Positions 849 through 60,772 of a stretch of 64,000 nucleotides of DNA are shown piece after piece. The stretch covers positions 186,001-250,000 of the forward strand of contig NW_026515672.1 of the NCBI RefSeq assembly GCF_025526975.1, read 5' to 3'. The stretch comes from Fimicolochytrium jonesii. Lineage: Eukaryota. The position numbers were made by a program, and so were the translations under genes. The notes under the pieces are model-generated. The model worked only from the letters and a program-made list of their open reading frames with translations, had not been told where the DNA came from and searched no databases. Numbering within the stretch: the first letter of the stretch is position 1; every line of letters begins with the position of its first letter.

Positions 849-1645
849 GGTGACCGTATTGGTTGGCGACGGTTGTCTCCTGCGAGGATTGTCCATGCAC
901 AGGTGCGGAAACGGAGGAACGGAAAAGACAAGCGCAAGAAGCGCAAAGCTCGCAAAGCGGGAGACGACTCGTCACGTGATTCAACAAGTCGCCTCCTCCC
1001 TCTCTTCCACCCTTCCACCACAGCTTCCACCACGCTCAGCACAACCATCTAACCGTCTGATGCCCACCGGCGCCACGGATGCTATCAGTTGGTGCTCAGA
1101 GCCTTAGGAAGAATACTCACTACAGGGTCGACTGACGCGCAAGTCCGTCTCTGAAGATGCTCTCGGGATTACCTACATGTGCTTTCCAGCTGGAGGCAGT
1201 CACCATGGCGATGCGCTAAGATTCGGTCGGAGCGTTGGCGATGAGGCATCGACGAGGGCGCTGAAGGGTTCAGGCCTGAACAAGAAGTGTGGAAGGAAAC
1301 CGTCCCCCACCCAGAGATATTGAAGGTGGGGACAACGTCTTCCTCCACGAAAACCTCGTACAGTTCTTTCGCTCTCCACACCAGTTGCAAAAGAACAAGT
1401 CATCCTTCAAAAAGGTCCACCTCGTCTCAAAACTCGCTCTCGACTTCTTGAGCGTGGTACGATATAAAGAAACAACAGCTGAATAGACCATGGCAATAGC
1501 TCACCTTTCTGACCTCACAAAGGCACGAAAAAAAGAGCACTTCGTGAATCCAAATGTGAGTGAAAGTCGGTTGCGTTATCTTTGCGTTTTCACACCTTGC
1601 TTGTATTGCTTCTAGCGTGAAACTGATCCGTCTAGGACTCGTCCA

Positions 1646-3121
1646 ATGGAGCAGATGCAAAAGCTCCGAATTAGTCTAGTATCGCTGGATTGGCTGAGAC
1701 CGAAGGATCCGCGGATTGCGCTTGGACATGCGTCGATCAAAGCTAAACTGACACAAAGCCAATTCGCCGAGCGCTTGGACGTCAAGGATCACTCCTTCAA
1801 CGTCAATCCAAGCCAATCGCTTCCGGCAGACTTGCTGAGCACGGCTGAAGAAGCAGCTGATGAGATCTTGGCGAGCAAGCCGGATCTTGTGGCATTTGGT
1901 GGATATGTTTGGAACGAATCTTATGTACAAAATATTCACAAGATCTTGGCGACTTCAAACCCGCGAAACACCTTCAACATACTAATGGGTCCGCAGACTT
2001 CCTATGCTCCAAAAGGGACGCTCGAATCATTCTATCCCTTCAGCGACATCTTCATCCGAGGCTATGCAGAAGACGCATTTCGCGACGTTGTCGAAAACAT
2101 GTTGCTACTTCGCAATGAACGGATTCGCGGAGTCCATCATGCGGGAGGGCACGACGATGGTTCTATGGCCAATGTCGATCTCAACGCCGCCCCATCGCCA
2201 TTTACTGAAGTAATCGACTTGAACAAGCACGAATTTATACGCTGGGAGACACAAAGAGGTTGTCCATTCCGTTGCACATTTTGTCAACATCGCGACTCTT
2301 ACCAGAAGCGATCCTTATTCAATTTACCGAAGCGAATTGCTGGAGAGATCCACGAAATCTGCTCAGAGCGAAGCGCTGTGCGCGATATCGCTGTTCTCGA
2401 TCCTACCTTCAACTCGGGACCGCACTACATTTCGGTCATCGAAGAGTTGACCCAACGTGGATACGCAGGGCGCCTTGCACTGCAGTGTCGCTTCGAGATG
2501 ATGCGGCCCGAGTTCGTTGAAGCCGTTCGGAGGCTTATCACGGTCAACAATGCGAAAGTCATACTTGAGTTTGGGATACAGACGATCATAATGGCCGAAA
2601 TGAAGGAGATTCAGCGCATCAACAACCTGGAGAAGGTCAAGTTCTGGGCGGAGCAACTGCATGCCGCGGAGATTCCCTTCGAGATCTCCCTCATCTACGG
2701 TCGCCCACATCAGACCGTCGATACATTCAAGAGGAGCATCGATTTCTGCCACGAACTGAAGCCAACTACCATGTATGCATGGCCCCTGATGCTACTTCGT
2801 GGCACAGAGTTAGAACGAAAGAAAGGGGTTCTCCAGTTGGAGGAAGGCGTGTTAGAGGAGGAAGGGGAGCAAAGATTCGTGGAGAAGCAGCGGATTCTAG
2901 GTGGAATCCCGCATGTTATGAGCTCGCCATCATTCAGCAAGAAGGAATGGTTTGAGATGCGCGATATAGCCGCAAGTCTTAACCTTCATGAGGATTATAT
3001 GTTGTACATAATCTGCTATTCTTTGCATGTTATGAATGTACGCCAATACTTGCCTGTAGTCACCTTACGGTCATACATGCATAATCCCATCGCAATCCGC
3101 GTACGCAAACTCTCAGAATAA
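1646..3121 (+). CDS. B12-binding-domain radical SAM protein (class B-like), intronless, bacterial-type
   Basis: 491-aa ORF. N-terminal cobalamin-binding Rossmann motifs (ALGHASI, KPDLVAFGGYVWN, ILMGPQTSY, DIFIRGYAE), CxxxCxxC in ETQRGCPFRCTFC, then LDPTFN, LEFGIQT, LIYGRPHQT and PLMLLRGTEL. The last ~45 aa look non-conserved. Confidence 0.88.
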   Translation: MEQMQKLRISLVSLDWLRPKDPRIALGHASIKAKLTQSQFAERLDVKDHSFNVNPSQSLPADLLSTAEEAADEILASKPDLVAFGGYVWNESYVQNIHKILATSNPRNTFNILMGPQTSYAPKGTLESFYPFSDIFIRGYAEDAFRDVVENMLLLRNERIRGVHHAGGHDDGSMANVDLNAAPSPFTEVIDLNKHEFIRWETQRGCPFRCTFCQHRDSYQKRSLFNLPKRIAGEIHEICSERSAVRDIAVLDPTFNSGPHYISVIEELTQRGYAGRLALQCRFEMMRPEFVEAVRRLITVNNAKVILEFGIQTIIMAEMKEIQRINNLEKVKFWAEQLHAAEIPFEISLIYGRPHQTVDTFKRSIDFCHELKPTTMYAWPLMLLRGTELERKKGVLQLEEGVLEEEGEQRFVEKQRILGGIPHVMSSPSFSKKEWFEMRDIAASLNLHEDYMLYIICYSLHVMNVRQYLPVVTLRSYMHNPIAIRVRKLSE

Positions 3122-4955: not shown

Positions 4956-7900
4956 CTAACCGCGCTCAGCACTGATGGCGGCACCACTCGCTCGGACGGG
5001 CTTCGCGTCGGCCGCAAGAGCTCCAGTTCCAGCTGCTCCGTTGATCTTGCCGGCGATGCCTACACCCTTCGAATCGGGAGTCTTGTCCGTAACAGCGGGG
5101 TCTTTGGTTGCTTTCTGAGGACTGACCGAGCGCGTATTGTCGCCGCTGTCACCGAAGAGCATCTTCCCATACAGCTTCTTTTCCTCGTCTTTGATTTTCT
5201 GCTGTTCTTTCAGAAGCGCGACTTTCGCGGCTTTGATTGCCGGGTCGTCTCGGTCAAGCTGTGAGAGATCCATTAGTAAGCACGTAGAGTTGTCTCCTGA
5301 GGAGGCCGCTTTGGTCAACATACGTCTTCAGCGGTATCCAACGCGCTCTGAGCCCCTTCCCAGTCCTTGAGCATAGTTTTGGCCCTGCCCAACCTATACC
5401 ACATCTTCGTATTTTGGGGGGCAACAGCCAACCCACCCTCACAAGCTCTTACGGCATCAGAAGCATCCAGAGTACGAATGTAAGCCTCGGCCAGATTAGA
5501 GTAGAGGGCGGTGCGGAGCTTCTGAATCTCCATGTCATCGTGCACGGAGGCGCCCCACGTGGTTCGGAGACGGTCTAGACCGGCCTTGTAGCTTTCTTGG
5601 GATAGATGGTAGGCGCCGGTTTTGAAGTGGGCGTTTCCGCGAGTTTTGTGAGTGGTGGCCTCTTCAATGCGTTGCGGGACAGGGTCTTGAGGCTGATGAG
5701 ATGCAAATTGTCAGCTATTGCTCCATTATAGCCTCCGTAGGCCGTTGAAGCCCTACCAGCTCGGCGTGTACGATTTCCAGATGGAAACACAAAGTGGCGT
5801 TGCCAGGCACCATCGGTTGATAACCTTCCTCGCCATAAGCTGTGAAATCAGGCGAATCCGAAGAAATGGTAAGCATCACTCGTATTCACCGGGACGGGCT
5901 ATGATGCGCCCGTGGAAAGTAACATACCGTATTCAGGTCCACAGATGATCTCGCTCTTCTCATTCACGTGCATAGTAGACACAGCCTTTTCCCACGCTTC
6001 GAGAACTTGGCCTGTGAGATAGGAAAATGTCAGGTTCTGTCCGGCGGGACAGAGCGCATGGTTATTCCGATTAAGTCTCACCGTCTCCATGGACATATTC
6101 AAAGGGACGACGGCCAGCGCTACTGTCAAATTCCTTCGGAGGATCGGTGCCATGCACCCAACCGGTGTAATGAACTACGTCCGATATGTAAGTAATGCCA
6201 CATGTGGAGCGACGTAAATCTCTGAACCCTCACCTTGAAGGTAAGACTGGGGAGTAATCAATGGGCCCGAACCACGTCGAAGGACCTTCTTCTTCAGGTT
6301 TCCATTGGGGTCCAGAAGAGTGTAGCCGTCCGCATCAACGCCGTAGTCGTGCACGACGGGTGCCGCCGGATGCGCTGCTGCAGGGGAAAATAGGGTTTAG
6401 TACCTCATTCGCAGATTCCGCATCTCGAACTCGTGCATACCTGGTGCAGGATCCTCGGCATTATTCCACTTTTCCTGGTCACCTTTCTCGGCCGCTTTGA
6501 CATTGCTCTCCCCTCCCGCTTCATCCCAATCCACCGGAGGAAGATCCTTCAATTCGACGCGCTCGCGTTCATTCTTTTGCTGCTCACGCGAAGGACCGAA
6601 CTGGGGTGGTTCGAGAGGGACATGCGATCCATCCTCAGCGATACGCCAGAACCGGCCATCTTTGCCCATCACAAAGCCGTTGGGAACACGACAGTCACCA
6701 ACGACACGGGAATCAGCCAAGTATTCCGGGATATCTTCCCATGTGTGCTCTCCATTGTAATCTCCCTCCCCTGGCTTTGCTTGAAGGAACGCACAGCCTT
6801 TCAAATCATGCCCTGGATGGCCGCATCTACAACAAACGCCGTCATTGCGACGCTGCCTCCAGAGCCAGTCCGGGATGTTACACTTCTGGCTGAGGCGGAG
6901 CTTTGGCTTCGTCGGGATCTCCATGGTGGAGAACTTGTAAGCGGCGCAGTCATTCCAGTCCTTCTTGCCATCGAGATCATCGTAGAGCGCGCAATCCTGG
7001 AGTCGGTGGCTAGGGTGGCCGCAACGGAGACAAACTTGGCACGCCTTGCGATGCTCCCACAACTCATACGAGATTCCCCAGCGACGACCACCACGGTCGC
7101 GATAGAAACTGTGCTCCTTTTTCTGGGCGGGCGCGGCTTGGTCTGGTATCGGAGTCTCCGTCGGTGCAGTGGGCTGCTTCATGATAGCCTCCCCGGCGGA
7201 CATGTCGTCCTGACCGTCAGCTTGGTCCCCATTCTGGTCGGCATCAGAAGCGTTCCTTTTGTTCTTGTTCTTGTTCTTCTTTTTCTTTTTGCGACCTGAT
7301 GTCTCAGCTAGCTCTTCCTCCGTGGGTGGGATAATCACGACAGGTTCCTGAGATGGGTACGGACGACACGATAGGATGAGATGTATATCCCTCCGACAAA
7401 GCCTACAAGAATTCTGGCAAGCCGATGCGGGTGATGAAGCTAGAGGCTACACGTACCCGCTCTTCGGTGTACTTGAGGCAAGAATGCTGGCCTTTCTCAA
7501 TCTCACAAACCTCCATAGGAAAGTAGGTAGGGCCCTGAAAGTTCAGGCATTATGGGCCGAATTAATCATGTCTCAAAACCAAAAAAAAGAGACGCAGTTC
7601 ACGTACCCCGGATTTCCTGACAACGACGCAAGCCAAGCCTGGATGATCCAATTTCTTTCCCCAGCGACTCTCGAAGTAATCGGCCACGCTTTTGCCGTCC
7701 ATGTCTCCGTCGAGGAAGATCTGATCAGCGCGCCTGGCTGTGAACTGCGAGATTCGGTAGCGACGTCTAAACTCTGGATTATGAGTAGTCAGAAAATTGT
7801 AGTTACGCAGCTCCAGCGTCAGGAAGTTGCAGTCTTCTTCACTGAGAGGCCGAGAGAAGGGATCGGCACGGGTCGGATATTGCTGTTTGAGAAGACGACC

Positions 7901-8461
7901 GACTACTTCGAGCATTGGCCCGCCGTCGAGGAACGAGTCTGTGCGAAGATCCGGATGATGATGAAATCCCTCCTCATCCTGAACCGTTTGGCCGGCTTGC
8001 TCAAGGGCTTCTGGGGTGGGCAGTCCACTTTCTTGGTGGTCCAACGTGGTGCGAGCGAGCCTGGAGAGCGCATCGACAGCCTTCTCAGTCAAACTTCGAA
8101 GATTCAGAATATCCCGTGTTGCGTCAGTTACCTGAGTTCCTCTTGCAAGGTTGAAGCCACAGCTTGCTTTTCGGAAATCTTTTGTCGAAGGTTGGCCATC
8201 CATGCTGAGCTGGAAGCATCCTCGTTTTTGACAGCTCTCTCCACGAGAGGTTCATCGACAACTGGGTGGCTTCCCTCGTCAGCGAACAGTTACCGGTTCA
8301 ATCAAGCAAAGAGCGGTCAATATACCTTCACGAAGGCTGACGGCGTTATCAGGAGTCTCCGTGGTGCTTGGTTTCTCAGCTTGTAGAATCTTGTTGCTAA
8401 CGGCAGCTGAAGAACCGTTGGCGTCGCGCTGGGTTTCTTGGGCAGGAGCCACGTTTCCCAT
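4956..8461 (-). CDS. Fusion protein: Argonaute-type PAZ + 2x CCHC zinc knuckle + FKBP-type PPIase + TPR (Hsp90 clamp), ~937 aa
   Basis: Manual model, all introns GT-AG and in frame: exons 8461-8326, 8261-8132, 8093-7607, 7534-7457, 7347-6441, 6377-6234, 6174-6082, 6011-5928, 5839-5757, 5692-5324, 5258-4956 (2814 nt). PAZ: TTHNPEFRRRYRISQFT...SVADYFESRWGKKLDHPGLACV...PTYFPMEVCEIEKGQ. Knuckles: CLRCGHPSHRLQDC and CCRCGHPGHDLKGC. FKBP: VHYTGW...FDSS...PFEY...GQVLEAWEKAVSTM...EYAYGEEG...VPGNATLCFHLEI. TPR: HKTRGNAHF...YSNLA...NTKMWYRLG...EKKLYGKM. The start codon and the 38-nt second intron are the least certain parts. Confidence 0.82.
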
Positions 8462-58722: not shown

Positions 58723-58846
58723 GGGCCCGCCAAACTCCCCAGTGCAGATTTTCGCATTCACTTCACTTCTGATCGTCACAACCCGAAAAATATTACATTT
58801 GCAAATAACCTAACAGCATCTGCAACATCCCACACCTTTACTCAAT

Positions 58847-60772
58847 ATGAGTAGCGCTGGCACTTCGAAAGCCGTCGGAATCGATCTCGGCACAACCTAC
58901 AGCTGTGTCGGAGTCTTCCAAAACGACCGGGTAGAAATTATCCCAAACGACCAAGGCAACCGTACAACGCCCAGCTATGTGGCTTTCACCGATACTGAGC
59001 GTCTCATTGGAGACGCAGCGAAAAACCAAGTCGCCCTGAACCCACAAAACACTGTCTTTGACGCCAAGCGACTCATCGGCCGCCGGTTCACTGACAAGGA
59101 AGTTCAAAGCGATATGCAGCACTGGCCCTTCAAGGTCTGCTGCGAGGGCGACGGAAAGCCAGTCATCGAAGTCGAATTCAAGGGCGAGAAGAAGAGGTTC
59201 ACACCCGAACAAATCTCTTCGATGGTGCTCACCAAGATGCGCGAAATCTCCGAAGCCTACCTCGGCCACCCTGTCAAAGACGCAGTCATCACGGTCCCAG
59301 CCTATTTCAACGATTCTCAACGACAAGCAACGAAAGACGCTGGAACCATCGCCAACCTCAACGTTCTGCGCATTATCAACGAACCTACTGCCGCGGCGAT
59401 TGCGTACGGGCTTGACAAGCGCAAGGGCCATGAGCAAAACGTCCTCATTTTCGATCTTGGAGGCGGCACGTTTGACGTGTCGCTTCTTTCCATCGAAGAC
59501 GGCGTTTTCGAAGTCAAAGCTACCGCCGGCGATACCCACCTAGGCGGTGAAGACTTTGACAACCGCTTGGTCTCACACTTCGTCGACGAATTCAAGCGCA
59601 AATACAAGAAGGACATCCGAAGCAACCAGCGAGCACTTCGCCGCTTGCGTACGGCTGCCGAGCGCGCTAAGCGAACACTCTCGTCATCAGCCCAAGCGAG
59701 TCTCGAAATCGATTCTCTCTACGAAGGCATCGACTTCTATACGACAATAACCAGGGCGCGGTTTGAAGAACTCTGCGGCGATTTGTTCCGCGCCACGCTC
59801 GAACCGGTTGAGAAGGTTCTGCGAGACGCCAAAATCGCAAAGAATGAAGTCCACGAAGTCGTATTGGTCGGCGGCTCCACTCGCATCCCCAAAGTTCAGA
59901 AGCTCGTCTCCGACTTTTTCAACGGCAAGGAACTAAACCGGTCGATCAACCCGGACGAAGCAGTGGCCTACGGTGCTGCTGTCCAAGCAGCGATCCTCAC
60001 CGGTGTTCAATCCGAAAAGACGCAAGATGTGCTGTTGATGGATGTGGCGCCTCTCTCGCTCGGTCTCGAGACCGCCGGCGGAGTCATGACGCCGCTCATT
60101 CCTCGCAACACCGTTATACCCACCAAGAAGAGTCAAGTCTTTTCGACCTATTCGGACAACCAACCCGGCGTCCTGATTCAAGTCTACGAAGGCGAACGCA
60201 AGCTTACCAAAGACAACAATCTTCTCGGCAAATTCGAGCTCAGCGGTATCCCTCCTGCGCCTCGGGGCGTCCCGCAGATCGAAGTCGTCTTCGACATGGA
60301 TGCTAACGGCATCTTGAACGTATCTGCGCAAGACAAGACAACGGGGAGATCTGGCAAAATCACCATCACGAACGATAAGGGCCGTCTCAGCAAAGAGGAC
60401 ATTGAGCGCATGGTCAGCGAGGCTGAGAAGTTCAAGCAGGAAGATGCCGCGGTCGCTGAACGAGTCTCTGCTCGCAACGAGTTCGAATCGTACACATACA
60501 ACCTTCGTAACACCATGGATGACCCCAAACTGAGTGGCAACCTTTCCGATGAGGACAAGGCCAGCTTGAAGAAGCTCGTCGATGAAGCTATTCAATGGCT
60601 CGATCACAATCACGAAGCCTCAACCGAAGAGTATAAGGAACGTCAGAACGAATTGTCCAAGGCGACCGAAGGCATCTTGAAGAAGATGTATCAAGGCGGA
60701 GGAGGTAACACGGGAGGAGCTACCACAGACGGCAGTGCTCCCTCTGGTCCTACCGTGGAGGAAGTCGATTGA
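58847..60772 (+). CDS. HSP70: Cytosolic Hsp70 (Ssa-type), intronless
   Basis: [35 protein letters not shown]-terminal GPTVEEVD. Confidence 0.98.

Follow-up and report, generated by a model that had tools for sequence, protein, structure and literature searches.

Here we describe a predicted gene of the fungus Fimicolochytrium jonesii in which a PAZ module derived from an Argonaute (AGO) is joined, in a single chain, to two CCHC knuckles, an FKBP domain and a TPR domain. The gene lies in a window of 64,000 nt of contig NW_026515672.1 (positions 186,001–250,000; all coordinates below are window positions), a stretch of intron-rich eukaryotic DNA whose genes, as read from their translations, include a kinesin and an Hsp70. 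Each of the domains is known; we regard their lineage-restricted and conserved fusion, of which four members were seen, as a new variant of the FKBP–TPR co-chaperones. The gene and its parts are as follows.

4956–8461 (−): predicted PAZ–CCHC×2–FKBP–TPR gene, 11 exons, 926 amino acids
8461–8326, 8261–8132, 8060–7607, 7534–7457, 7347–6441, 6377–6234 (−): exons 1–6
6174–6082, 6011–5928, 5839–5757, 5692–5324, 5258–4956 (−): exons 7–11
7952–8461 (−): N-terminal region, residues 1–125 (exons 1, 2 and the start of 3), poorly conserved
7607–7951 (−): AGO-derived module, part 1, end of L1 and most of PAZ, residues 126–240, recognized by Pfam, PDB, AGO HMM and structural model
7535–7606 (−): intron 3, 72 nt, phase 0, GT–AG, with two in-frame stops, interrupting PAZ
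7457–7534 (−): AGO-derived module, part 2, last PAZ strand (T243, Y244, F245) and start of L2, to R266
7348–7456 (−): intron 4, 109 nt, phase 0, junction of PAZ with the remainder
7120–7347 (−): linker with a Lys/Asn-rich tract, residues 267–342, one-frame gene model
6793–7032 (−): two CX2CX4HX4C knuckles, residues 372–385 (7032–6991) and 438–451 (6834–6793)
5757–6333 (−): FKBP domain, four exons, residues 584–702, Pfam FKBP_C on single exons
5157–5692 (−): TPR domain, three repeats and a C-terminal helix, residues 704–860, Pfam TPR

The fusion is conserved in Spizellomycetales

A phmmer search of 1.84 billion representative sequences with the PAZ exon returned 27 matches. The top three (E = 5e-23 to 1e-17) combined PAZ, FKBP_C and TPR within a single chain that had no Piwi domain; 18 of the other 24 carried further AGO domains, and six were PAZ-only pieces of 133–155 amino acids. 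The three fusion homologues, from the soil chytrids Thoreauomyces humboldtii, Spizellomyces sp. 'palustris' and Geranomyces variabilis, represent two families of Spizellomycetales and are labelled by NCBI as 'hypothetical protein' or P450. The Geranomyces protein KAJ3175604.1 is misnamed 'cytochrome P450 monooxygenase 9', as Pfam detected no P450 domain in it. Our model was 43% identical to the Thoreauomyces homologue over 732 columns and 38% to that of Geranomyces over 772. By region (Thoreauomyces, Spizellomyces and Geranomyces, respectively), identity was 46, 42 and 38% in the PAZ module, 59, 31 and 48% in the knuckle region, 55, 46 and 53% in FKBP, 34, 33 and 42% in TPR, and 25, 16 and 14% in the second linker. 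PAZ is thus conserved as much as TPR (38–46% versus 33–42%), and its identity over three genera suggests that selection on PAZ has been upheld at the protein level.

The range of the family was probed in several further ways. Word-seeded homologue searches with the knuckle exon and the PAZ exon found nothing, although relatives exist, and a family-profile search returned five proteins, two of them of the fusion family, but missed the Spizellomyces one, leaving the family's range unbounded. Two metagenome scans (319 and 221 pattern matches) yielded no confirmed locus. Literature searches, which largely missed subscription papers, found no description of a PAZ–FKBP–TPR chain.

Gene model and the junction of the two halves

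All ten introns of the predicted gene are of the GT–AG type and the exons form one open frame of 926 codons. The least certain part is the start codon with the first two introns: residues 1–125 are only 13–21% identical to the homologues, and a Pfam search with the exon-1 frame found no family. Over the position of intron 3, the homologues align without gaps. The Thoreauomyces and Geranomyces homologues have shorter Lys tracts at the place of the Lys/Asn-rich linker tract.

The critical junction is intron 4, where use of a competing acceptor at 7402 would end translation after residue 298. Two adjacent genes, a PAZ-only protein of 298 residues made through this acceptor and a knuckle–FKBP–TPR protein, could then have been joined by the gene model only. 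In favour of such a split, intron 4 is the longest of the ten (109 nt; the remaining nine span 59–88 nt) and lacks a strong branch motif, a 54-nt alternative exists, the homologue chains are likewise predictions, and the Thoreauomyces chain has 445 additional N-terminal residues unmatched in the window. However, the parts are united in three separate annotations, the alignment with the Thoreauomyces homologue runs straight over intron 4, the first three residues of exon 5 recur in that homologue immediately behind its PAZ module, and two genes would leave only ~100 nt between the stop and the next ATG. Codon use points the same way: with a model trained on 3900 codons from seven long window frames, the stretch 7347–7204 scored 0.27 per codon in the fused frame against −0.10 and −0.27 in the rival frames, in a rough test in which the knuckle stretch itself scores about 0. 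Because the homologues align across intron 4, the question is settled in favour of the fusion, the fused protein is the predicted one, and we consider two separate genes very improbable. A short minor isoform using acceptor 7402 may exist beside the fused form. The Thoreauomyces residues 1–445, which gave only a weak treble-clef match, may stem from a neighbouring gene merged into the model or represent one more domain of the fusion.

The PAZ module derives from an Argonaute

Pfam PAZ matched the module above its cut-off (E = 2e-8), and the exon 7534–7457 alone matched Pfam PAZ positions 92–111 at E = 0.06 and the AGO HMM, built from 16 AGO proteins, at E = 3.5e-5. Against the spliced model this HMM matched D126 (7951) to R266 (7457) with 107.5 bits, and nowhere else in the protein, covering nodes 132–268 (137/138–268 in the homologues). 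By this extent the module takes in the end of L1 on one side and the start of L2 on the other, short pieces on which Pfam ArgoL1 and ArgoL2 gave no match. A PDB search with 7607–7960 returned six matches, all of them Argonautes (best, Arabidopsis AGO10, 1.6e-7), and the Atlas clusters for the module were PAZ and ArgoL1/PAZ at 0.97. Key residues of part 1 are H182, R188, R189, Y190, L205, Y217, F218 and W222.

The initial annotation had described this module as an Argonaute fragment, and much of that description holds. All peptide motifs quoted there lie in one minus-strand frame, in exons 8060–7607 and 7534–7457 spliced by the 72-nt phase-0 intron, and the similarity, said to end at 7457, does stop at that exon end in the AGO HMM match. 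It also held the fragment to be free of MID and PIWI; indeed, no N, MID or PIWI parts were found in the 64-kb window, where the two PAZ exons are the only ones among 1887 six-frame peptides to match the AGO HMM. Likewise, Pfam found no Piwi or ArgoMid in the three homologue chains, the AGO HMM recognized one domain per chain in all four proteins, and no RNase III, helicase or platform domain was detected by Pfam on the homologues or the window exons. The protein is therefore neither an Argonaute, as it has no MID or PIWI, nor a Dicer, as it has no RNase III, helicase or platform. What the initial annotation omits is the FKBP–TPR partner, from which the module takes its meaning.

An AGO-clade rather than a Dicer origin, also proposed there, is favoured by both sequence and model comparisons. 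A PAZ profile of three family sequences gave 48 matches in the PDB, scoring 65–80 bits for human AGO1–4, plant AGO10 and fly AGO1, 30–34 for fly AGO2, 14–19 for PIWI, 17 for DCL3 and 13 for yeast KpAGO. A model of the PAZ exon (pLDDT 85.6), which was folded on an AGO-rich alignment, lacks the last strand and is thus not independent of the sequence, matched the human AGO1 PAZ with Z 10.9 (rmsd 2.9, 101 residues aligned), followed by fly AGO2 (9.1), archaeal HrAgo1 (7.9), fly Piwi (7.4), plant AGO10 (6.8) and Dicers (≤6.4). Dicer and PIWI PAZ domains share the fold family (Z 5.0–7.4 on this model), and those of mammalian and fly Dicer align only to its residues 49–113. Among the matches listed, Foldseek with the exon model returned Argonautes only. 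The Geranomyces model matched the AGO PAZ 1si2 with Z 16.0 (rmsd 2.6, 119 aligned).

In a tree of 29 PAZ rows, all AGO-type (two near-copies were dropped and two rows without PAZ excluded), the four fusion PAZ domains form one side of a branch with 100/99 support and a stem of 0.61, and thus have one origin among the AGO rows tested. By path length, the closest AGO is a chytrid one from Borealophlyctis, without firm support; the backbone is weak (3 of 26 inner branches starred) and the bootstrap unsettled. A Chytridium lagenaria protein of 208 amino acids with ArgoL1 and PAZ but without PIWI, annotated on a 260-kb contig, falls outside the fusion group; it may come from an AGO gene model that was split, or be a further chytrid PAZ that stands alone.

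The ends of the module bear on how the fusion arose. The AGO match ends at the 3′ side exactly at a phase-0 intron, whereas its 5′ end lies ~36 codons inside exon 3, with an upstream intron of phase 2. Classical exon shuffling is for this reason not established, and a partial AGO duplication would fit as well. The match ends alike in all four proteins (HMM nodes 132–138 to 268), which fits a single fusion event. The fusion likely arose once, before the split of Powellomycetaceae and Spizellomycetaceae, from a partial AGO copy and a gene with a single FKBP plus TPR.

The predicted RNA 3′-end pocket appears conserved but remodelled

Human residue numbers given here were hand-counted on the AGO1 chain (range 224–356, equal to that of AGO2 chains). 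The window protein is identical to human at seven of the ten PAZ10 residues (set listed in PMC11240694), namely H182, R188, Y190, Y217, F218, T243 and Y244, corresponding to H271, R277, Y279, Y311/F312 and T337/Y338; identity in the homologues is 8/10 in Thoreauomyces, 7/10 in Spizellomyces and 6/10 in Geranomyces, whose pocket, with H271 to Y and F312 to L, has changed most. Two replacements, K278 to R189 and L339 to F245, are common in AGOs (7 and 6 of 27 rows). Within the family, the R277, Y279, Y311 and Y338 positions are invariant (4/4) and H271 is kept in three of four. These invariant residues belong to PAZ10 (PMC11240694) and contact the 3′ overhang (PMC5896489), and among 27 AGO rows only 17 have Tyr in the Y279 column and only 14 in the Y338 column.

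The F294 column differs. It holds L205 in the window and L, L, L and I across the family, against F in 25 of 27 AGO rows; the change to L is rare (1/27). Both the AGO HMM and the PDB profile alignments put L205 there and F204 one column earlier. In PMC5896489, the aromatic ring at this place (F292) touches the last base. When phmmer aligns the module pairwise with human AGO1 or AGO4, it inserts a one-residue gap that places F204 on F294, which explains why the initial annotation counted F294 as matched; the alignment to plant AGO10 has no such gap. The fusion PAZ domains are also less basic, with net charges of −1, +2, +2 and +3 over 125 shared columns, compared with a median of +8 (range −1 to +12) for 24 AGO rows; 30 of 31 rows passed the gap filter and, the rows being related, no p-value is attached. 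Hence, the AGO2 contacts proposed at H271, Y279, Y311/F312 and T337/Y338 are kept and the one at F294 is not confirmed, and to call the pocket apparently intact, as had been done, is an overstatement: it is best described as conserved but remodelled. Binding of RNA 3′ ends by this PAZ is plausible from its residues, and an isolated AGO1 PAZ binds 2-nt overhangs (PMC9262622). The F294 column and the lower charge suggest that the pocket may be weaker or changed.

Knuckles and the FKBP–TPR half

The two knuckles, each preceded by a Trp/Arg helix, lie within a conserved region, residues 343–505. Thoreauomyces and Geranomyces also have two, and Spizellomyces has one variant (CX2CX3HX4C). Pfam, including zf-CCHC, gave no match on the knuckle region, and the Atlas leads for it (zf-CCHC, AIR2-like and Gag knuckles) all score <0.9. 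Whole-chain fold searches returned no match to it, their rows being filled by FKBP and TPR, which says nothing on the fold of this region. Trp-rich motifs in residues 343–505 (6630–7120, −) are kept in Thoreauomyces and Geranomyces, and the region, which Pfam left unmatched and Atlas matched without confidence, may represent a zinc-containing domain not yet described.

FKBP_C was found in the homologues at E = 1e-26 to 7e-21. We take an active FKBP core to comprise, in FKBP12 numbering, Y26, F36, D37, F46, W59, Y82 and F99. These seven positions are invariant in all four proteins (in the window they include Y619, F632, D633, W654, Y677 and F694), and the H87 and I90 positions vary; judged by these residues, the core looks active. 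The pairing of TPR domains with an EEVD tail is a textbook one, and the dicarboxylate clamp for EEVD presumably consists of five residues. Mapped through the FKBP4 alignment, all five are present in the window (K719, N723, N769, K799 and R803) and in Geranomyces, and four of five in Thoreauomyces. The best natural PDB matches of the TPR domain were led by SPAG1 and included FKBP5 and FKBP4, and the best match of the Geranomyces homologue was FKBP4 (E = 2e-35). Thus, the arrangement is that of an FKBP–TPR immunophilin: FKBP, then a three-repeat TPR with a C-terminal helix and clamp residues. In FKBP51, the clamp equivalents K352 and R356 are required for Hsp90 binding (PMC10896785).

A whole-chain model of the Geranomyces homologue showed folded PAZ, FKBP and TPR (pLDDT mostly 85–98), two knuckle units at ~75 and disordered linkers. 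Its fold matches were FKBP52, FKBP38, FKBP51 and Hsp90/Hsp70-binding TPRs. The same window encodes an intron-free cytosolic-type Hsp70 ending in EEVD (58814–60772, +), which the TPR clamp might bind in addition to Hsp90.

Comparison with known systems

The module resembles the L1–PAZ–L2 of AGO-clade proteins (human AGO1–4, Arabidopsis AGO10 and fungal AGOs) in its 65–80 bits, against 14–19 for Dicer and PIWI PAZ, and in seven of the ten PAZ10 residues. Unlike them, the fusion lacks N, MID and PIWI, and with these the guide 5′ pocket and the slicer, has an aliphatic F294 column and a less basic surface, and is joined to FKBP–TPR. The C-terminal half resembles FKBP52/FKBP51, FKBP38 and Plasmodium FKBP35-type proteins, which have an FKBP followed by a clamp TPR and C-terminal helix (best fold matches: FKBP52, FKBP38, FKBP51 and the Plasmodium TPR 2fbn). 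It differs from these matches in having one FKBP, its core kept, directly before TPR, and in the N-terminal PAZ and knuckles that none of them has. Coi12p, Shutdown/FKBP6 and Cyp40 likewise combine a PPIase-type domain with an Hsp90-binding TPR and share the proposed role, whereas the accessible texts describe no PAZ or knuckle for them, and Coi12p, with two FKBP domains, is devoid of PPIase activity. For Coi12p, Shutdown and FKBP6 the likeness meant here is in the way of working and does not extend to a claim of orthology.

A proposed role in Argonaute loading

We suggest, with about even confidence, that the protein is an RNA-holding Hsp90 co-chaperone for the loading of small RNAs into Argonaute. 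With an empty Argonaute bound to Hsp90, the TPR clamp would dock on the chaperone's C-terminal EEVD. PAZ would cap the 3′ end of the small RNA, probably with a weaker grip than that of Argonaute because its F294 stacking residue is aliphatic and its surface less basic, and a weaker grip would suit hand-over. Knuckles could contribute single-strand contacts, and the flexible linkers would allow the RNA to be handed to Argonaute, or the passenger strand or a by-product to be removed. Co-chaperones of the FKBP–TPR and Cyp–TPR types, among them Coi12p, Shutdown, FKBP6 and Cyp40, serve Argonaute/PIWI loading through Hsp90 in Tetrahymena, fly, mouse and plants (PMC4331008, PMC3463805, PMC5084781). 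In line with an RNA interference (RNAi) role, Spizellomyces and Powellomyces are listed with three Dicers each (PMC12663654 supplement). The available supplement text of PMC5751038 has no Spizellomyces entry. A more specific form of the proposal, which we hold only tentatively, is that of a Spizellomycetales RISC-loading factor with its own guide-end pocket, one that took its client's PAZ, holds the small RNA on Hsp90 and passes it to the empty Argonaute. The fusion as a replacement for a missing Dicer PAZ was considered and rejected, as PAZ is detected in seven of the nine Spizellomyces/Powellomyces Dicers that PMC12663654 lists.

Several observations weigh against a loading role. The stacking position of the pocket is aliphatic in all four proteins, and the PAZ carries less positive charge than is typical of AGO rows. 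In the Spizellomyces homologue the second knuckle is missing, as are 21 residues of TPR3 that contain two of the clamp positions, possibly through a gene-model error. The Geranomyces whole-chain model (pTM 0.38) gives no fixed domain arrangement. Coi12p is without PPIase activity (PMC4331008), whereas the fusion FKBP core looks active. The chief observation against an RNAi role is that G. variabilis keeps the fusion, yet is listed, by species and with high completeness, as 'No Dcr detected' (PMC12663654 supplement), a listing not confirmed to be of the same assembly as KAJ3175604.1. Its altered pocket could reflect decay after Dicer loss, and one species cannot decide this.

Other readings of a real fusion differ in what PAZ does. 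It may have ceased to bind RNA ends and serve as a protein surface or AGO mimic on an active FKBP–TPR co-chaperone, for example as a built-in Hsp90 client face or as a decoy regulating AGO partners. The aliphatic F294 column, the low net charge, the stem branch of 0.61 and the retention of an altered pocket in Geranomyces, listed without Dicer, would agree with this, but the invariance of the R277, Y279, Y311 and Y338 positions, H271 in three of four proteins and the adjacent knuckles, which suggest nucleic-acid binding, make it rather unlikely. We would give similarly modest odds to PAZ binding RNA 3′ ends outside RNAi, with the protein recruiting Hsp90 for the assembly, refolding or decay of some other ribonucleoprotein, such as a complex of retroelement, viral or non-coding RNA. 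Relative to Thoreauomyces, the knuckle region is the best conserved one (59%), its sub-threshold Atlas leads include AIR2-like and Gag knuckles, and Geranomyces retains the fusion while listed without Dicer. On the other side, PAZ is AGO-derived, FKBP–TPR proteins are repeatedly tied to Argonaute loading (PMC4331008, PMC3463805) and direct evidence for another client is absent. That PAZ is a decaying, functionless relic of an AGO copy, as several pocket changes and the long branches might hint, is hardly credible given the open, gap-poor alignment at 38–46% identity over two families while the linkers diverged, and the confident folds (pLDDT ~90).

If the more specific form of the loading role is correct, one chain would unite RNA presentation and chaperone recruitment, which are the work of separate proteins in animals and plants. 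Argonaute loading by PPIase–TPR proteins and Hsp90 is known from genetics and lysates, a level at which the RNA holder is not known, and a natural fusion of a co-chaperone with its client's RNA-end pocket would point to a direct link. The fusion would also offer a separable test system, in which mutations could be placed separately in PAZ, knuckles, PPIase and clamp. More broadly, it appears to provide a case in which selection has maintained a eukaryotic PAZ in a protein other than Argonaute or Dicer, and it offers a candidate for an RNAi factor in chytrids, where small-RNA pathways are little studied.

A neighbouring gene

Elsewhere in the window, 1616–3121 (+) holds an intron-free frame of 500 codons with B12-binding and radical SAM domains, for which the PDB matches were CysS and TokK. 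The predicted enzyme, a cobalamin-dependent radical SAM protein of bacterial type within a fungal genome, may have been acquired by horizontal transfer.

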